Below, in pieces: positions 17,788 through 50,024 of a stretch of 56,031 bases of DNA (the stretch's first letter is position 1; each line of letters starts with the position of its first letter). The notes under the pieces are model-generated. The model had not been told where the DNA came from. It made no database searches and was given only the letters and a program-made list of their open reading frames with translations. Source of the DNA: a virus (taxonomy: Duplodnaviria; Caudoviricetes). The DNA lies in IMG/VR virus record IMGVR_UViG_3300046837_000115, positions 1-56,031 of that record; one strand, 5' to 3'. The position numbers and the translations under genes were made by a program.

Positions 17788-17937
17788 GCGAAGGAAGGGG
17801 CGCTACTGCCTGGCGTCCCTTCCCGTCGCAGGGCTGGAGGACAGCGGTGTAACCCTCATCTGGGCGGGCTCGCACCGCTGTCCTCGAACCCTGCCCAGAT
17901 ACCAATCGCGACACGTGAAGGAGTTAAGCCCAGATGA
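17788..17937 (+). promoter_or_regulatory. Structured 5' leader: two hairpins, with a loop complementary to the downstream start codon
   Basis: Stems 17793-17805/17811-17823 and 17837-17849/17873-17885 (13-bp perfect); loop TCATCTGGGC is the reverse complement of GCCCAGATGA at 17928-17937. Confidence 0.55.
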
Positions 17938-20900
17938 TCGTTCCGAAGATTGCTGCCTGCATGATCGTGAAGAACTCCGAGCAGGTGATCGAGAAGGCGC
18001 TGGAGTCGATCCGCCCCTACGTGGACGGGATCTTCATCTACGACACCGGGTCGACCGACAACACCCGAGACGTGCTGGCCGCCCTGGCGAAGATAACGCA
18101 CTGCGGCAAAGACGACGAGGGCGACCTGATGGCCGCCGCACCGATCACCGTGAAACAGGGCGAGTGGCGCGACGACTTCTCGTGGGCGCGTGAGCAGTCG
18201 TTCGCGATGGCGAACGATCCGGGGGAAGACTTCACCCACTACCTGTGGCTGGACGACGACGACGAGATCGTCGGCGCCTCCAACCTCCGCCACCTCGCGG
18301 CGAACATGCCGGAGGACATCCACGCGCTGTCGTTCTACTACGACTACGCCCGCGACGAGGACGGGAACAACGTCTGCCAGCTGTGGCGGGAACGGCTGAT
18401 CTGGCGGCACGCCGACTACCACTGGGTCGAGCCCGTCCACGAGTGCTACGTCCCCCGAGAAGGACAGGCACGACTGTCACCGGTCCCTCCGGGCGTGACG
18501 CACTGGAAGCACCATCGGCCAGCCACCGACCGGTACGACCCGTCCAGGAACCTCGACATCCTTCATGCCTGTCGCGAGAAGGCGGAGGCCGCTGGGGAGG
18601 AGATCAGCCCACGCATCCTCGCCTATCTCGGCACCGAGTACATGGCGAAAGGCGATTTCACCGAGGCCGTCAAGTGGCTCGACCTGTACACCAAGCGTGA
18701 CGACGCCGGGTGGTCGGACGAGCGCTGCCAGGTACGGCACAAGCTCGCGCTGTGCTTCCGCGCGATCGGGAACACGGAGGCGGCGATCAACTGCGAGTTC
18801 ACCGCGATCCGTGAACGCGACACATGGGCGGAGAACTCGATCGGGTTGGCGGCGTGCTTCGCGTCGATCGGCCGGTGGGACCGGGCGGAACACTGGGCGA
18901 AGCAGGCGCTCGCGATCGGCCTGCCGCAGTCACCGCTGATCCTGAACCCGGTCGAGCACAACCTGTTCCCGTGGCTGATCCTCACCGACGCGTACCTGAA
19001 CCGGCAGTCGTACGAGGAGGCGCAGGCCGCCATCGCGAAAGCGCTGGAGGTCGCGCCGATCGACGACGTCAAGGAGAAAAAGCAGGAGGTCGACGTGGCG
19101 GCCAACACCGCCGAACTCGTCGGCGCCGCGCTGATGCTCCGGGAGATCCTGATCCGGCACGACGAAAACCTCAAGGCGTACGACCTGCTGAAATCGGTGC
19201 CGTACGTGATCGAGGACGACCCGAGGATCGTGCACGCCCGCTCGTCCGCGCGCCTTAACATCATCCACGCGGTCGAGCCGGACGAGTACACCCGCTGGTA
19301 CAAGGACGTCCCGAAAGAGTCCACGGTCGGCGACGAGCACGTCGACCAGATAGACCAGTACATCGAGCGGGTCGCGTACCTCGCCGAAGGACTCGCAGAG
19401 CAGGAGACGGAGCTAGGCAGGAAGCCGGAGGTTCTCGACCTCGGCTGCAACGACTTCTGGTTGGAGTGCTTCCTCTGGAAACGCTACGGCATCCACGCCG
19501 ACGGGGTCGAGTTGAACAAAAAGTCGTTTGACCTCGGGCTGAAACGGCGGCGGAAATTCAAGGCGCCCGGCAAGCTACACCACGGCAACCTTCACGACGC
19601 CGCCAAGATCACCGGCAAGAAATACGACGCCGTCGTCCTGTTCGAGGTGCTCGAACACGTCCCTGACATGTCCGCCACCCTCGCGGTGTGCGAGTCGATG
19701 CTGAACCCCGGCGGCCGCGTGTACCTGACGACGCCGAACGGTGCGTTCGACCGCGGCATGATCGACTGGGAACGCGTCGAGCCGAAGGGACACCTCCGCG
19801 CGCTCACGGCAGGGCAGCTGGCCGACCTGCTGCTCACACGCGGGCAGATCGACGACTACCGCGTCCACTGCAACGGACGGCTCACGTTCGCCCGATACAA
19901 GGCACAACCCGCGAAATCGACGGTGAACTTCTACCTGGGCGGCCAGTGGGAGCCCTGGAGCCCGGCGTCGTTGAAAGACGGCGGCATCGGCGGGTCAGAG
20001 ACCGCCGCCGTGCAGGTCGCGACCCGGCTGGCCGCCAGGGGCCACCGGGTTCGCGTCTTCTCCAGCTCCGAGGAAGGACTGGCCGGTGGGGTGCTGTACC
20101 GGCCTCACACGTCATGGGACCCGACGGAGACCACCGACCTCCTCATCGTGTCGCGGTTGGCGCACGTGTTCGACAACCCGATCGGCGCCAGGAAGACCGC
20201 GCTCTGGTGCCACGACCACTCCTACCCGAACGAGCTGACGGCGGAACGCGCGGGGAAGATCGACCATATCGTCACCCTGACCGAGTGGCAGCGGGCGAGG
20301 TTCGCCCGCCTCTACCCGTGGACGGAGAACCGTCTGCGGGTGATCGGGAACGGCATTTCCTACAGGGAGATCGACAGCGGGGAGCCGCGCTATCCGAACG
20401 CCTACAGGCCTTTCGGTGAGCGGCTCCCCCGTGTCGTCTTCAGCCACTCCGCCGACCGTGGCCTGGACGTGATGCTCGACCTGTGGCCGCGGATCCGCGA
20501 GCGGGTGCCGGACGCAGAACTCCACGTGTTCTACGGGTTCAACACCATGGACAGGCTGCTGCCGTTCAGCCCGAACCTCGCCGCCTACAAGGGGGCGCTG
20601 CTGGAGAAGGCGAAGGAGCTTGGCGGCGAAGAGGGCGGCGTGTTCCTCCGCGGCCGTGTCGGACAACTCGAACTCGCCGAGGAGATGCAACTCGCCCGGA
20701 TGGAGGGCTACCCGACTGCGTTCCTCGAAACGTTCTGTATCACCGCCCTTGAAGCGCGGGCGGCCGGGCTGCCGATGCTCACCTCCGACCTCGGCGCGTT
20801 GCGTGAGACCGTCGGCGACCACGGGATCCTCCTGCCATGGGGTCCGGACGAGGACGAGCCCTGCAACCAGACCCCGGAATATCAGGACCGCTGGGTTCAT

Positions 20901-21062
20901 CTGGCGTGCGACCTGTTGACAGACGAGACGGTCTGGAACCACTGGCACGAGTGCGCTCTCCTTGGCGCGGAGCTTCTGGATTGGGACCACAAGGTCGCCA
21001 GCTGGGAGCTGTTGGTCGGTGGCGCGACGGCGAAGGCACGGAGGGAGAAGGTAGCCGCGTGA
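17934..21062 (+). CDS. Multidomain glycosyltransferase: GT2 + TPR-like helices + class I SAM methyltransferase + GT4-like (GT-B)
   Basis: CMIVKN, YDTGSTD, W.DDFS.AR, WLDDDD, VHE; VLDLGC and FEVLEH..PGG.VYLTTPN; GIGGSET, HSADRGL, ETFCITALEA. Confidence 0.88.
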   Translation: MIVPKIAACMIVKNSEQVIEKALESIRPYVDGIFIYDTGSTDNTRDVLAALAKITHCGKDDEGDLMAAAPITVKQGEWRDDFSWAREQSFAMANDPGEDFTHYLWLDDDDEIVGASNLRHLAANMPEDIHALSFYYDYARDEDGNNVCQLWRERLIWRHADYHWVEPVHECYVPREGQARLSPVPPGVTHWKHHRPATDRYDPSRNLDILHACREKAEAAGEEISPRILAYLGTEYMAKGDFTEAVKWLDLYTKRDDAGWSDERCQVRHKLALCFRAIGNTEAAINCEFTAIRERDTWAENSIGLAACFASIGRWDRAEHWAKQALAIGLPQSPLILNPVEHNLFPWLILTDAYLNRQSYEEAQAAIAKALEVAPIDDVKEKKQEVDVAANTAELVGAALMLREILIRHDENLKAYDLLKSVPYVIEDDPRIVHARSSARLNIIHAVEPDEYTRWYKDVPKESTVGDEHVDQIDQYIERVAYLAEGLAEQETELGRKPEVLDLGCNDFWLECFLWKRYGIHADGVELNKKSFDLGLKRRRKFKAPGKLHHGNLHDAAKITGKKYDAVVLFEVLEHVPDMSATLAVCESMLNPGGRVYLTTPNGAFDRGMIDWERVEPKGHLRALTAGQLADLLLTRGQIDDYRVHCNGRLTFARYKAQPAKSTVNFYLGGQWEPWSPASLKDGGIGGSETAAVQVATRLAARGHRVRVFSSSEEGLAGGVLYRPHTSWDPTETTDLLIVSRLAHVFDNPIGARKTALWCHDHSYPNELTAERAGKIDHIVTLTEWQRARFARLYPWTENRLRVIGNGISYREIDSGEPRYPNAYRPFGERLPRVVFSHSADRGLDVMLDLWPRIRERVPDAELHVFYGFNTMDRLLPFSPNLAAYKGALLEKAKELGGEEGGVFLRGRVGQLELAEEMQLARMEGYPTAFLETFCITALEARAAGLPMLTSDLGALRETVGDHGILLPWGPDEDEPCNQTPEYQDRWVHLACDLLTDETVWNHWHECALLGAELLDWDHKVASWELLVGGATAKARREKVAA

Positions 21063-44597: not shown

Positions 44598-45161
44598 ATG
44601 CGGGCAGGTATCACGCTGGTGTGCGCCCTCGCCATGTGTTCGTTGGCGGGGCCAGGTGAAGCGCAGACCATGAAACCACCGAGCAGGGCGCCGCATTCCG
44701 CGGCGTTCTACACGAACACGGTGCCGCGTCATTCGGCCCGGTATCTGACCGCGGCCAAGCTCGCTCGCGGGCTGCGCGGGCTGTGCTCTCGTGGCTCTGG
44801 GGGGTGTGCTCTGGCCGGTCAGGCGTTTGTGATCGAGCAGGCCGGTTGGGAGACGCATACGTCGCCGGGCGCGATGGTCGGCGCCAGCTTCACGGAGAGC
44901 AGCGGGGGTGACGCTGCTTGTGGTGGGAACCCGAAGAACATCTGGGGGTTGTCGTCGTGCGGATCAGGCTGGTACGTGCCTTACTTCCGCACGTGGCATC
45001 AAGCGTTCGTGTTCTTCGCCCGGTTTCTGCACCGTCAATGGCCGGGCGCCAGAACCGTCTACGATTTCCCTGGCTATTCCGCGTGTGATTCGTGCTGGGG
45101 GCCGAGAACAGCACTATGGGCGTCGCGTCTCGGATTCGGCCCGGGGCTGCGGTACCCGTGA
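44598..45161 (+). CDS. Secreted lysozyme-like (glucosaminidase-like) protein
   Basis: GGAGG RBS; signal peptide; ESSGG....N.WG....F..W motif. Confidence 0.55.
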   Translation: MRAGITLVCALAMCSLAGPGEAQTMKPPSRAPHSAAFYTNTVPRHSARYLTAAKLARGLRGLCSRGSGGCALAGQAFVIEQAGWETHTSPGAMVGASFTESSGGDAACGGNPKNIWGLSSCGSGWYVPYFRTWHQAFVFFARFLHRQWPGARTVYDFPGYSACDSCWGPRTALWASRLGFGPGLRYP

Positions 45162-45220
45162 CGTGCTCGGCCTGCCGCCGGTTCCGTCCCTGCCTCCGAT
45201 GCCTCGGGCTGCTGCCGTGA
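45158..45220 (+). CDS. 20-aa CxxC-CxxC peptide coupling adjacent genes
   Basis: MTCSACRRFRPCLRCLGLLP; GTGA overlaps at both ends. Confidence 0.35.
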   Translation: MTCSACRRFRPCLRCLGLLP

Positions 45221-47553
45221 TCTACCTGGCGGACCCGGACGTGACGATCCACCAGGGCGACGCCCTGGATGTGCTGGCCGCGATGCCGGACGGGTCGGTG
45301 CATTGTTGCGTGACGTCTCCGCCGTACTGGGGTTTGCGTGATTACGGGACGGGAGCGTGGGAGGGCGGCGACGAAGGCTGCGACCACGCGAAGCCAACGA
45401 CGACCTACAACCACGGCTTTAACGAGCGGTGGGGCCAGGGCGGCGGACAGCTGAAGCAGGAGAAGAAGTCGGAGGGCCAGTACGCGCAGGAGTGCCCGAA
45501 GTGCGGCGCCCGCCGTGTCGACCAACAACTCGGCCTCGAGGCCACCCCGGACGAGTACGTGGCCCGGATGGTCGAAGTGTTCCGCGAGGTGCGCCGCGTG
45601 CTGCGGGCGGACGGGACGTTGTGGCTCAACATCGGCGACAGTTACGCGCAGGGGCCATCCGGCAGCCCAGGCCCGACAGGTTTAGAGGGCCGGTCGCAGG
45701 ATTCGACACGCGTGCACGTCTCGAAACTTGGAAATGGGCTCAAGCAGAAGGATCTCGTCGGCATCCCCTGGCGGCTCGCGTTCGCCCTCCAGGCAGACGG
45801 CTGGTATTTGCGCTCGGACATCATCTGGGCGAAACCGAACCCGATGCCCGAGAGCGTGACGGACAGGCCGACCAAAGCCCATGAGTACGTGTTCCTACTC
45901 AGCAAGTCGCCGCGGTACTTCTTTGACGCTGATGCCATTCGTGAGCCGCACAAAGAACCCTGGCGCGGACAGGGCGAGGCGGAGAAGAACAACTGGTCGG
46001 TAAATGGCGAAAGGGGCAGCCACGACACCGTGCGCCAGTACAACCCTGCTGGCCGCAACGTCCGTTCAGTGTGGGAGATAGAGCAGACGGGCCGCGAGCG
46101 AGGCGGTACCAAGCACACGCTCATCGAGGACTACTTCAACGACATCTACACCGAGGAGCAGGCGTACTGGCTCGGCTTCCTCTACGCAGACGGCTACCTC
46201 GGACGCCGACACGTCGATCTACAACTCGCAGCGAAGGACGCGGGACACGTTGAGCGGTTCCAGCGTGCTCTCGGTTCAAGTCGTGAGGTCACGATCTCGA
46301 GAGATGGCAGGGCGCGCTTTATCGCCTCATCGCTTCGGATGGCGAATGATCTCGGCCATCTTGGGATGCGCGAGCGCAGCACCATGCCGATCCTCAATGG
46401 CGAACTGACCCGGCACTTTGTCCGCGGCGTGTTCGATGGCGACGGCAGCGCATGGAGCTACCTGCCCGCCGGACGAACCAAGAGACGCTACGGCGCCGCG
46501 TTCCTCGGCAGCCAAGGCCTCCTCGATGAGATCCGGGAAGAACTCGGCCTGCGCGGCAAGCCCAAGTTTTCGCGTGGGATTCATCGCCTGTCGGTTGCTG
46601 CAGGAGATGATATTGCTCGCCTCTACGCCTATCTCTACGACGGGGCCACGGTGTGGCTCGAGCGGAAGCGTGTCGAGTTCCCACAGGCGCAGAGCATCGC
46701 GCCGGCCACATGGAGCATCGCCACACAGCCGTACCCGGAGGCGCATTTCGCCACGTTCCCGGAGGAACTCGTCAGGCGGTGCGTGCTGGCGGGTTGCCCT
46801 GAGTTTGTCTGCAGCGAGTGTTATACTCCGTGTGTAAATGCCGAAGCCACCGAGTCTGATTCCGTACAAGCGGCACTGCAACGTATGCGGCCGGTACTAC
46901 GAGGGTCGGGGAAAGATGTTTTGCAGCCGGTCTTGTCAGACGATTGCGGCAAACCGAGCGCGCGGGAAGAAGCAGCGCCCGCCGTGCCGGAACTGTGGGA
47001 AGCCCGTCAAGACGATGAGGCACAAGACTTGTTCGACCAAGTGCGCCGGCCAGTGGGCAACCAAGACGGGGGCGAATCGTCACCCATTCCCGCCCGAGCG
47101 CCGAGCGGCGAACTGGAAGGGCGGCAGGGTGATCGACGTGAGCGGCTACGTGCGGGTCTACAGTCGCCAGAAGCGTCGATACCTGCTCGAACACCGAGTG
47201 GTGATGGAGCAGAGGCTAGGGCGGTCGCTGACGCGGGGCGAGTTCGTCCATCATCGCAACGGGATCAAGACGGACAACCGGCCCGAGAACTTGGAGCTGA
47301 TGACGCGGAATCCGCATCGGGGAACGGTGGAGTGTCCCCACTGCGGCGAGCGGTTCGCGATTCGCTGAGCCCCTGCTGTGGCGCGCCGCTGAGCCCAGGG
47401 ATCGTCCTAGACCCGTTCATCGGCAGTGGCACCACCGGCCTGGTAGCACGCAAACACGGCCGCCACGCGATCGGCATCGAGCTGAACGCCGACTACTGCG
47501 AGTTGGCGTCGAGACGGTTGGCGCAACAGTCGCTGTTGACGGAGCTGGCGTGA
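45217..47553 (+). CDS. N4/N6 DNA methyltransferase (beta class) with two large insertions
   Basis: VTSPPYWGLRDY, WLNIGDSY, IIWAKPNPMPESV.DR, HFATFP, VLDPFIGSGTT, GIELN. Confidence 0.88.
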   Translation: MIYLADPDVTIHQGDALDVLAAMPDGSVHCCVTSPPYWGLRDYGTGAWEGGDEGCDHAKPTTTYNHGFNERWGQGGGQLKQEKKSEGQYAQECPKCGARRVDQQLGLEATPDEYVARMVEVFREVRRVLRADGTLWLNIGDSYAQGPSGSPGPTGLEGRSQDSTRVHVSKLGNGLKQKDLVGIPWRLAFALQADGWYLRSDIIWAKPNPMPESVTDRPTKAHEYVFLLSKSPRYFFDADAIREPHKEPWRGQGEAEKNNWSVNGERGSHDTVRQYNPAGRNVRSVWEIEQTGRERGGTKHTLIEDYFNDIYTEEQAYWLGFLYADGYLGRRHVDLQLAAKDAGHVERFQRALGSSREVTISRDGRARFIASSLRMANDLGHLGMRERSTMPILNGELTRHFVRGVFDGDGSAWSYLPAGRTKRRYGAAFLGSQGLLDEIREELGLRGKPKFSRGIHRLSVAAGDDIARLYAYLYDGATVWLERKRVEFPQAQSIAPATWSIATQPYPEAHFATFPEELVRRCVLAGCPEFVCSECYTPCVNAEATESDSVQAALQRMRPVLRGSGKDVLQPVLSDDCGKPSAREEAAPAVPELWEARQDDEAQDLFDQVRRPVGNQDGGESSPIPARAPSGELEGRQGDRRERLRAGLQSPEASIPARTPSGDGAEARAVADAGRVRPSSQRDQDGQPARELGADDAESASGNGGVSPLRRAVRDSLSPCCGAPLSPGIVLDPFIGSGTTGLVARKHGRHAIGIELNADYCELASRRLAQQSLLTELA
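46081..46719 (+). mobile_element. In-frame two-motif LAGLIDADG endonuclease domain inserted in the methyltransferase
   Basis: AYWLGFLYADG and HFVRGVFDGDG motifs between SVWEI and WSIATQPY. Confidence 0.75.
46838..47368 (+). CDS. HNH endonuclease nested in the +1 frame within the methyltransferase gene
   Basis: Two CxxC..CS..C knuckles, NWKGGR, GYV, EHRVVME..LGR.L...E.VHH.NG.K.DNR.ENLEL; TGTTATACT just upstream. Confidence 0.85.
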   Translation: MPKPPSLIPYKRHCNVCGRYYEGRGKMFCSRSCQTIAANRARGKKQRPPCRNCGKPVKTMRHKTCSTKCAGQWATKTGANRHPFPPERRAANWKGGRVIDVSGYVRVYSRQKRRYLLEHRVVMEQRLGRSLTRGEFVHHRNGIKTDNRPENLELMTRNPHRGTVECPHCGERFAIR

Positions 47554-47783: not shown

Positions 47784-48577
47784 CGGTAACTCTTGACGCG
47801 ACCCGTGACCTGATCGCGGGCATGAACGCGCAGAGCGCGCGTTGGCTGGTGGACTACTACTACGCGGTGCAGGACTTCCGCATCCAGGCGCAGGGGCAGC
47901 TGCGCGCGATCGTGCAAGAGGCCGACGAAGGAACATTCCTGATCGGCGAGCAGCTCCTCGACGACACGTCTGAGATCGAAAAGAGAATCAGGAAGGCGCT
48001 GGACAAGTACACGGATGAGGTGGTACCGACGGTGTGGGCGAAGTCGATCCACGGCATCGGGCCTGTCCTCGCAGCCGGTCTCGCGGCCCATATCGACATC
48101 GAGAAGGCACCGACGGTCGGCCATATCTGGCGGTTCGCCGGGCTCGACCCGACGGTGAAGTGGGGGAAGGGCGAGAAGAGGCCGTGGAACGCGTCGCTGA
48201 AGGTGCTGTGCTGGAAGATCGGCGACTCCTTCGTGAAGGTCAGCGGGAAAGACACCGACGTGTACGGGAAGGTTTATCGGGCCAGGAAGGAGCAGGAGAT
48301 ACGGAAGAACGAGGCAGGCGACTTCGCCGACCAGGCCGCGGCCGCCCTCGCCGAACGGAAGTTCAAAGTGTCCGATACCCGCAAGGCGTACGAGGCAGGT
48401 CGGCTACCGGACGGCAGGATCGACCTGCGCGCCCGCCGGTACGCCGTCAAGCTGTTCCTCGCCCACTACCACCACGTCGCATACGAGGATCACTACGGCG
48501 AACCCCCGCCGAAACCGTACGCCCTCACCCACCTCGACCACGCCCACTTCATCGCACCACCAAACTGGCCGCTGTAG
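47780..48577 (+). CDS. tasA: IS110/Nop-like RNA-binding protein without a nuclease domain (TasA-like)
   Basis: AGGAGGAG RBS; 265 aa; coiled coil then SIHGIGPVLAAGL...IWRFAGLDP...WNASLKVLCW; no DEDD RuvC or HNH motif; array directly downstream. Confidence 0.8.
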   Translation: MTVTLDATRDLIAGMNAQSARWLVDYYYAVQDFRIQAQGQLRAIVQEADEGTFLIGEQLLDDTSEIEKRIRKALDKYTDEVVPTVWAKSIHGIGPVLAAGLAAHIDIEKAPTVGHIWRFAGLDPTVKWGKGEKRPWNASLKVLCWKIGDSFVKVSGKDTDVYGKVYRARKEQEIRKNEAGDFADQAAAALAERKFKVSDTRKAYEAGRLPDGRIDLRARRYAVKLFLAHYHHVAYEDHYGEPPPKPYALTHLDHAHFIAPPNWPL

Positions 48578-49115
48578 CCGTGAAAGTGGAGGGCACCGAG
48601 AAGAGAGAGCGAGCCGTCCTCAACGAGAGTGCCGTAGCTCGCGAGCGAGCCACCATAGGCGAGGGCACCGTCCCAGGTGAGCGAGCCGTGGTGTCTGAGA
48701 GCACCGTATGGAGCGAGCGAGCCGTCGTTCAGGAGAGCACCGCCCCTGAAGAGCGAGCCGTCACCGCCGATAGCACCGTGCTTCGTGAGCGAGCCGTGAT
48801 CGAAGAGGTAACCGACGATCCCGAGCGAGCCGCCCGTAGGGAGAGTGCCATCGCCACCGAGCGAGCCGTAGAGGGTGAGGGCGCCATTCGCCTAGAGCGA
48901 GTCGAAGTAGTCGAGAGCACCGACGCCTACGAGCGAGCCGAGGCCGTTGAGGGCACCCAGACGCAGGAGCGAGCCGCTAGGCGGGAGAGCACCGATAGGA
49001 GCGAGCGAGCCGCTGATACAGAGAGCACCGTCGACGATGATCGAGCCACCAACCCTGAAAGCACCTCACCCCTGGAGCGAGCCGAGCTGGTCGAGGGTAC
49101 CGAAGATGCTGAGCG
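48576..49115 (+). ncRNA. TIGR-like tandem interspaced guide RNA array, 15 x 36 nt
   Basis: Units start at 48580+36n: 9-nt spacer, GAG(A/G)GCACC, 9-nt spacer, GAGCGAGCC; all 30 spacers differ. Confidence 0.9.
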
Positions 49116-49128
49116 CCCAGAAACACGA

Positions 49129-49146
49129 ACGGCCCCGAAGGGCCGT
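49129..49146. terminator. Hairpin downstream of the array
   Basis: ACGGCCC-CGAA-GGGCCGT; T-rich tail on the minus strand. Confidence 0.55.
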
Positions 49147-49191
49147 CCGGTCGCAACCCCGGCCCGGAGGCGAGGCTGTCGAGGTCCCGCT

Positions 49192-49398
49192 CTAGGCGGG
49201 GGTCACGTCTTCGACGTGTGTGACGCTCAGCGCTCGGCAGGAGCCGTCGCAGTAGACCGTCTCGCCCATCGGGTCGAACGGTCCGGATGGGTGGCCTTCG
49301 CACTCGGGCGCGAAGTTCACCGGCAGGCCGCAGCGCCGACAACCAGCGTCGACCTCAATGTCCATGACGGGCGTCTCGCAGTTGCAGTAAAGGGTCAT
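49192..49398 (-). CDS. 68-aa Cys-rich hypothetical protein with its own promoter
   Basis: AAGGAGG RBS; CNC, CRRC, CEGH and YCDGSC motifs. Confidence 0.7.
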   Translation of the reverse strand: MTLYCNCETPVMDIEVDAGCRRCGLPVNFAPECEGHPSGPFDPMGETVYCDGSCRALSVTHVEDVTPA

Positions 49399-49434
49399 CT
49401 CTGCCTCCTTGGTAGCGGAACCTCGACAAAGGGA

Positions 49435-49463
49435 AGTGTACCACACATGGCGGACGGTGTCAA
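49435..49463 (-). promoter_or_regulatory. Strong sigma70-type promoter
   Basis: Minus strand TTGACA-17 nt-TACACT with TG extension. Confidence 0.8.
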
Positions 49464-50024
49464 GTGAGCCCATGGCTACGCGTAGACGACGGCTTCACCG
49501 GCAACCGCAAAATCCTCGCGCTCGGCACCGACCAACGACGCTGGACATGGATGCGAATCCTCTGCTACGCCGCCCACCAATCCAGCCCAGAAATCCCCCA
49601 CCACATCGGCCACGAAATCAACGGAGCCACCCCCAAATACATCGCAGACCTCCTCGAAATCGGCCTCCTCGACGAAGACGGCCCACACAACTACGTCATC
49701 CACGACTGGGACGACTACAACCCCAAAGACCCCACCAACCCCATGCGCCAAGCCCGCTACCGACAACGCCAACGTAACGCACAAAGTAACGCCACCAGTA
49801 ACGCCGAAGTAACGCACACCGTAACGCCACCCGTAACAGACGAAACCGTTACCGAAGTAACGCCCCACGCGCTGGCACGCGCGCGCGTTCCCACCCCACC
49901 CCAAACAACAAGACCCTTAGAGAGAGATGTATCTGTGGGTTCAAACGTAACTGGGGGCAACGGCCGCAAAGTCAAACCCCCAGACTTGAAAACAGTCGAC
50001 CAGCAGATCGGAGGCGCAGCGTGA
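49464..50024 (+). CDS. Putative replication initiator
   Basis: WLRVDDGF...K N-terminus, L...GL.D, YVIHDW.DYN, RQARYR; internal iteron-like repeats. Confidence 0.7.
   Translation: MSPWLRVDDGFTGNRKILALGTDQRRWTWMRILCYAAHQSSPEIPHHIGHEINGATPKYIADLLEIGLLDEDGPHNYVIHDWDDYNPKDPTNPMRQARYRQRQRNAQSNATSNAEVTHTVTPPVTDETVTEVTPHALARARVPTPPQTTRPLERDVSVGSNVTGGNGRKVKPPDLKTVDQQIGGAA
49774..49863 (+). repeat. GTAACG(C) iteron-like repeats (putative origin)
   Basis: GTAAC at 49774, 49786, 49798, 49809, 49821, 49833 and 49857, plus inverted GTTAC at 49848. Confidence 0.65.

Follow-up and report, generated by a model that had tools for sequence, protein, structure and literature searches.

The window, i.e. the whole stretch of 56,031 nucleotides that was analysed, carries a dual-repeat TIGR-TasA system, an identity that is nearly certain, and one of the guides of this system, unit 2, has a candidate natural target in a cellular host: its joined spacers are identical to a site at the start of a conserved HNH endonuclease gene of high-GC soil actinobacteria. 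The chances that unit 2 is a real guide against the start of this gene in the host were judged to be even. The system is already known, and only the candidate natural target of unit 2 is new.

The array was constituted by 15 head-to-tail units of 36 nt (48571-49115), placed directly 3' of tasA. Within each unit the order was edge repeat GAGCGAGCC, spacer A (9 nt), loop repeat GAGRGCACC and spacer B (9 nt). Two alternating repeats of 8-12 nt, spacers of about 9 nt and units of 36 nt, which define a dual-repeat TIGR array, were therefore present, together with truncated edges at 48571 and 49111, a hairpin at 49126-49149 and an adjoining Tas gene with a Nop domain predicted from its sequence. The coordinates of the features are detailed in Table 1. 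The consensus scan of the hairpin showed a T-rich tail on the minus strand only, and the RNA fold of the + strand gave the same hairpin, the folding of the whole 61-nt stretch being not unusual (z = -1.0). Since the + strand has no T-run, we infer no more than a likely role of this hairpin as terminator of the array. No Rfam family matched the array. A perfect palindrome of 10 nt, GCTCGCGAGC, was observed at 48637-48646, in which the last 6 nt of the unit-2 spacer B are joined to the first 4 nt of the edge repeat that follows it, and thus this spacer carries the reverse complement of the repeat core.

Table 1. Location of tasA, the repeat-spacer array and its neighbouring hairpin in the window.
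Feature	Position	Strand	Remarks
tasA, nuclease-free TIGR-associated (Nop/IS110-like) protein, 265 aa	47780..48577	+	start GTG 47780
Unit 1, edge repeat truncated, overlapping the tasA stop codon	48571..48606	+	register print
Units 2-15, 14 units of exactly 36 nt	48607..49110	+	period 36 by Tandem Repeats Finder
Spacer A of unit 2, GTCCTCAAC	48616..48624	+	left half of the unit-2 18-mer
Spacer B of unit 2, GTAGCTCGC	48634..48642	+	gives, as reverse complement, the right half of that 18-mer
Closing edge repeat, 3'-truncated, GAGCG	49111..49115	+	like the array ends in the available text of Faure et al. 2025
G+C-rich hairpin 3' of the array, predicted terminator	49126..49149	.	consensus scan: stem of 10 pairs

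One reading frame stays open over the full array, within an ORF of 477 aa (48034-49467), and the array might be taken for a protein-coding or other non-guide repeat, of 12 residues in that ORF. This explanation can be practically dismissed: the repeats are kept at the DNA level and the 9-nt blocks between them vary freely, the open frame begins inside tasA in another frame, the same repeats, separated by spacers that are entirely different, adjoin Tas genes in many contigs, and the array ends agree with the description given in the available text of Faure et al. 2025 (PMC12045711).

The reading frame of tasA was open from 47657, and GTG 47780, which has a GGAGG ribosome-binding site immediately 5' of it and overlaps the stop of the ORF upstream, was considered as the most likely start. 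The product matched phrog_4285 in PHROG (E 4.3e-46) and, as the sole Pfam match above the cut-off, Transposase_20 (E 6.1e-5). Among solved structures it was aligned with TasR 9mty_A (E 5.2e-17) and with TasH 21kl_A and seven more entries (E 2.5e-10), and it was related by tblastn (E 3e-7) to the TasH gene region of Salicola phage CGphi29. These alignments start at residue 151 of TasR and residue 91 of TasH, past the nuclease domains of both proteins, and no HNH or RuvC domain was found above threshold in Pfam or in the structure alignments, HNH_3 scoring E 0.099, below the Pfam cut-off; on these two grounds the protein was identified as a TasA. PADLOC returned nothing for the Tas protein. Its C-terminus is rich in Y and H (HYHHVAYEDHYGE), and it is in this C-terminal region that the available text of Xu 2026 (bioRxiv 10.64898/2026.09.09.750476) places the Y/H processing loop of dual-repeat systems, the likeness being one of composition. 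Supplementary file 3 of Faure et al. 2025 lists a protein identical to TasA six times, and thus the system had already been catalogued.

The closest characterized counterpart is FpTasA of Flavonifractor plautii which, according to the available text of Faure et al. 2025, is likewise a nuclease-free Tas beside a dual-repeat array, with 9-nt spacers A and B, 36-nt units, truncated edges and a terminator hairpin. The system of the window does not differ from it in kind, its variable part being probably of 8+8 nt after a fixed purine; neither this array nor its spacers are described in the available text of that paper. SpTasH of the Salicola phage CGphi29 (21kl/9w03) and TaTasR (9mty) have homologous Nop-type domains and the same dual-strand geometry, but both possess an N-terminal nuclease, HNH or RuvC, and cut DNA, whereas the phage TasA has no nuclease match above threshold.

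The earlier note had proposed that a single contiguous site is recognised, on its two opposite strands, by the two half-spacers; this is the mechanism already published for TIGR-Tas, and hence not new. As described in the available text of Faure et al. 2025, the target is a stretch of 18 bp that becomes unwound, one strand being paired by spacer A and the neighbouring part of the opposite strand by spacer B; cleavage leaves 3' overhangs, and a gap of 1-2 bp between the halves does not prevent it. From these overhangs it was derived here, rather than taken from that paper, that the site reads on its top strand as spacer A followed by the reverse complement of spacer B, A+rc(B). By homology with the characterized systems (FpTasA, SpTasH and TaTasR), on which the whole mode of action proposed here is based, transcription of the array would accompany or follow that of tasA, and the transcript would be cut within the edge repeats, giving 36-nt tigRNAs. 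A TasA dimer with one tigRNA would unwind a site of 16-18 bp, whose two strands would be paired over adjoining stretches, one by spacer A and the other by spacer B. As TasA has no nuclease, the complex would be expected to stay on the DNA and block transcription. In the assays reported in the available text of Xu 2026, TasA proteins (MbTasA) and catalytically dead TasR were sequence-specific repressors.

The 18-mer of unit 2 gave 117 exact matches (18/18) in a genome collection with one genome per species. Among the 80 of these loci that were listed, 65 were in frame as VLNASY in one conserved small HNH gene, at the gene start and in the peptide context VLVLNASYEP(L/I)NVC...; the remaining 15 were in other contexts, two of them alike. 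The resemblance of VLNASY to the N-terminus of an HNH protein family, which the earlier note had pointed out, was therefore correct. By record title (64 tallied), the HNH loci belonged mostly to Solirubrobacterales, Gaiellaceae and unnamed bins of Actinomycetes or Actinomycetota, with a minority of a few Acidobacteriota and one Chloroflexaceae bin, and the genomes with this site were nearly all from high-GC soil Actinomycetota. No exact match was found in the viral contigs of IMG/VR, so the site belongs to cells and not to phages.

A complete genome of the candidate host clade (G001; 2.52 Mb, 70% G+C), chosen for holding the unit-2 site, was used as reference. Its HNH gene encodes a 167-aa HNH_5/HNH protein whose ATG is 15 nt upstream of the site. 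The nearest in-frame start was at this same distance in 32 of the 65 HNH loci, and it was the only possible start in 20 of the 65. The family is very large and very conserved, with 7,780 of 8,000 scored candidates at E 1e-20 or better, and the best 120 relatives listed showed 74-99% identity to the G001 protein. Its members are labelled 'HNH endonuclease' or, by automatic annotation, 'McrA', and PADLOC gave only generic HNH-domain matches for the protein.

The exact allele was present in 3 of 151 genomes sampled evenly over the class, two of the three being the seeds themselves. At two or fewer mismatches the site was present in 172 of 301 genomes; the 150 listed of the 305 matches were mostly synonymous variants, 2 of them being exact and 24 having one mismatch. 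With the spacers in the other order, rc(A2)+B2, 3 of the 151 genomes matched at one or fewer mismatches, none exactly, and a reversed control also matched in 3; unit 6 matched in 1 genome of the same sample. Among the 506 distinct units of the Tas clade, only unit 2 encodes a hexapeptide found in the HNH family, and 2 such cases were obtained in 20 x 506 (10,120) shuffled pairings. An attachment of the phage to this site by integration was also considered and rejected, as the phage has no stretch like the site and no integrase was detected among 37 ORFs scanned.

Three features of this match suggest that the target is real: it was obtained solely in the published geometry, with 18 of 18 positions identical; it is located at the gene start, where a block of transcription would work; and it is absent from viral contigs and present in a plausible host group. 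Against a real target, only 1 of the 15 guides shows anything, and the exact allele is rare, most relatives having synonymous variants.

The five 18-mers given in the earlier note with their translations (units 2, 6, 10, 11 and 15) were all reproduced exactly. The general claim that the joined spacers look like coding sequence was, on the contrary, not borne out, since the codon-usage score of the true A+rc(B) pairs had no excess over chance when compared with permuted pairings (p = 0.30 under the codon model of G001 and p = 0.085 under that of the phage). Owing to the fixed purine at spacer position 1, mostly G in this array, the joined 18-mers are for the most part of the form GNN...NNC, and the coding look of the set is chance plus this fixed purine. 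The 18-mer of unit 10 had four independent matches in IMG/VR (L387-L392), all four encoding DAYDYF within an open frame and differing entirely in their flanks, which shows how codon bias alone puts such 18-mers in frame.

The comparison proposed in the earlier note, whose reading would be refuted if true pairings of spacers A and B hit no more often than shuffled ones, went against the set as a whole: it was no better than shuffled pairs in the phage genome, in G001 or in IMG/VR, with unit 2 as sole exception. The supposed location of the targets in genes of hosts or competitors was supported only for unit 2, in a conserved cellular HNH gene, the other units having no excess. In the phage genome all 15 true pairs were at least 4 mismatches away from any sequence outside the array, in line with the earlier note, which had noticed no self-match by eye, and 23 of 210 shuffled pairs matched at three or fewer mismatches; self-targeting was rejected on this basis. 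In G001, the 14 true pairs had 1 exact, 1 one-mismatch, 10 two-mismatch and 127 three-mismatch matches, and for 182 shuffled pairs the respective means per pair were 0, 0.033, 0.687 and 8.66, i.e. 0, 0.46, 9.6 and 121 when scaled to 14 pairs. Unit 2 accounted for the only exact match, and from 0 to 3 mismatches the remaining 13 full units behaved as shuffled pairs; the one-mismatch match of unit 10 was inside a gene. Allowing gaps of 0-2 bp or using 16-mer cores for all 15 units, no excess was detected in the phage genome or G001, unit 2 apart. In the six-frame translation of G001, the hexapeptides of all units were matched for 43% of true and 36% of shuffled pairs, again no excess.

Exact scans of IMG/VR gave no match for unit 2, 6 for unit 6 (4 independent), 6 for unit 10 (4 independent), 5 for unit 15 (4 independent), 1 for unit 11 and 1 for one shuffled pair, and in these scans of five true units and one shuffled pair no two independent matches had common flanks. 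Targets in rival phages were rejected as an explanation of these matches, since true and shuffled pairs did not differ in having from 0 to 6 of them, with no relation between the contexts. Related arrays were also compared with the HNH loci, and none of 492 distinct units was within 2 mismatches of them; an apparent match in locus L022 proved to be a register artefact overlapping the edge repeat, and another in locus L002 was outside the array. Against G001, 267 units of related arrays had no exact and 1 one-mismatch match, and their shuffled pairings had 0 and 3, respectively.

These results have to be weighed against the explanation that the match of unit 2 is a coincidence, in which an 18-mer made of high-GC codons equals one synonymous version of a deeply conserved hexapeptide and the real targets (rival phages, plasmids or non-conserved host sites) are absent from the collections searched. 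We consider its probability to be a little below even. It agrees with the lack of support from any other guide or related array, with the unrelated contexts of the IMG/VR matches of true and shuffled pairs, and with the frequency of the exact allele, about 1-2% of the class sample, which by our estimate is what ordinary codon choice would give. Furthermore, unit 2 was singled out by recognition of its peptide and was the sole 18-mer scanned against the genome collection. A caution in the available text of Xu 2026 is that, with spacers this short, many matches to targets will be false. The coincidence is opposed by the location of 65 of the 80 listed loci at one homologous position, at the very start of the gene, by the restriction of the match to the published geometry and by the rarity of HNH-family peptides among the shuffled pairings.

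Exact 18-mers are often common to unrelated places in genomes of 70% G+C, which also favours a coincidence. Among the 18-mers of 400 kb of another genome of the same class (G004), 1.3% recurred in G001 and 0.32% did so for the reversed sequence; for 18-mers with 11 G+C the values were 0.59% and 0.06%. Given this frequent sharing, exact 18-mer matches in such genomes need controls matched in composition. An estimate of the chance of a conserved cluster from the 18-mers shared by the two genomes was discarded, since G+C-rich codon strings dominate them. The chance of a cluster such as that of unit 2 was instead roughly estimated, by reasoning and not by computation, at 0.1% to 10%. The inputs were the rate of peptide-level shuffling, about 4e-8 per hexapeptide per pair, and two guesses, namely that high-GC bacteria have 1e4 to 1e5 hexapeptides that are deeply invariant and that about one tenth of the codon spellings are present in the collection. 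They lead to about 0.1-1% for the array, and about 10% is possible if shallow multi-species clusters, from large genera, are counted.

Homologues of the Tas protein were found in 24 viral and 80 metagenome loci, with the same two repeats beside them in other loci, and 845 similar units were parsed from 78 of 105 sources examined, the array of the window included. In 757 units of this Tas clade, position 1 of both spacers was a purine in 98-99% of cases (A 0.61, G 0.37). In the array of the window, 12 of the 14 A spacers and 10 of the 14 B spacers begin with G, and position 2 was G in none of 28. The fixed purine leaves a variable guide that is probably of 8+8 nt; it agrees with SpTasH, for which the available text of Guan 2026 describes pairing of 8 nt of spacer A, with the preceding base (A5) stacked and not paired. 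The G+C content of the spacers was about 50% (0.39-0.63) whatever that of the contig (0.45-0.70), with r = 0.21 over 47 arrays. Spacers sampled from the DNA of hosts or phages would not be expected to show this flat composition, which weighs against a real target of unit 2 and may reflect either a limit on the sites that can be unwound or the way in which spacers arise. Both the fixed purine and the spacer G+C of about 50% bear on how TIGR targets are to be searched.

The composition of the spacers is also relevant to another explanation, that the process which builds the arrays took the spacer pair of unit 2 from host DNA incidentally, the match marking a past host and having no silencing role. 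We regard this as very unlikely. The match is exact and found in cells only, as such a copy would be, and the gain of spacers by TIGR arrays is left unexplained in the available discussions of Faure et al. 2025 and Xu 2026; on the other side, clade spacer G+C does not follow contig G+C, and the copying would have had to set two separate 9-nt pieces, one from each strand of the site, in their correct order and orientation, which favours selection on function.

With respect to the phage, the window is a whole virus record, that of a tailed phage, and encodes portal, terminase, capsid, tape-measure and tail proteins and a RecT/SbcCD module, with several DNA methyltransferase genes just upstream of tasA. 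A nucleotide search with 25 kb of it against cultured phages found nothing, and its portal protein was at most about 30% identical to those of actinobacteriophages. For the capsid protein a single named relative (64% identity) was found, on a 47-kb contig of a bin labelled Gaiellaceae, which is a weak hint to the host; a second named relative, of the portal protein, was in a bin labelled Thermoanaerobaculia. The portal protein had 2 weak matches in 401 genomes. The capsid protein had none in 401 genomes of Gaiellaceae, nor in 15 Gaiellaceae genomes with the exact unit-2 site.

Two peculiarities of the gene content were recorded. At 44908-47553 an insert resembling an endonuclease interrupts a DNA methyltransferase reading frame: residues 106-399 and 831-873 match methyltransferases in PHROG and residues 401-591 an endonuclease, which looks like a mobile insertion or an intein in a methyltransferase gene, and a separate HNH endonuclease ORF (46838-47368) lies within this stretch in another frame. 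Among the head and tail genes, a protein of 1042 aa (17934-21062) had two glycosyltransferase matches and one methyltransferase match.

In the reading preferred here, in which the target of unit 2 has about even chances of being real, unit 2 would guide TasA to the first codons of the HNH gene (about +16 to +33 from the start codon) in the host of the phage. This host would be a soil actinobacterium of high G+C, similar to Gaiellaceae and Solirubrobacterales; the HNH nuclease would be silenced during infection, and the remaining 14 guides would aim at sequences absent from the collections searched. With somewhat less than an even chance of being correct, it is further proposed that the phage turns its nuclease-free TIGR-TasA on the host in this way for takeover or counter-defence, the unit-2 site having been chosen because it is nearly invariant, so that the host could not easily escape. 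The context of this proposal is that the HNH gene is automatically labelled as McrA-like and that the array is just downstream of DNA methyltransferase genes.

The CRISPR-Cas system of Vibrio phage ICP1 targets the host element PLE; it cuts DNA, includes an adaptation module and has many spacers that match the host. It is likewise a phage-borne RNA-guided system directed to host DNA in aid of infection, whereas in the window there is no nuclease and one candidate host match. The same action that is proposed here, a bound complex that blocks transcription, even of a chromosomal gene, is described for MbTasA and dead TasR in the available text of Xu 2026, there with engineered guides in E. coli and here with a native guide and a candidate native target.

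As stated in the available texts of Faure et al. 2025 and Xu 2026, the natural targets of TIGR guides are undetermined and their short spacers make false matches likely. A search of the literature for reported natural targets led only to these same two papers. If the proposed target is true, a TIGR system would for the first time have a natural host target, and the role of TasA would be counter-defence or host takeover. If it is false, the case gives a calibrated warning that, in genomes of 70% G+C, an exact 18-mer may fall on a conserved codon string by chance.

Finally, none of the spacers of the array recurred in the other parsed arrays, and the pattern A2-N9-B2 was found in IMG/VR in 2 near-identical, low-GC places, neither of them an array. 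Some of the related arrays are long, with 45 units parsed in locus L002 (3860-5700) and 67 units with 9-nt spacers in locus L294. Runs of identical spacer pairs are shared by marine contigs, 12 pairs being common to loci L004, L319 and L355, and arrays can thus be stable across samples.
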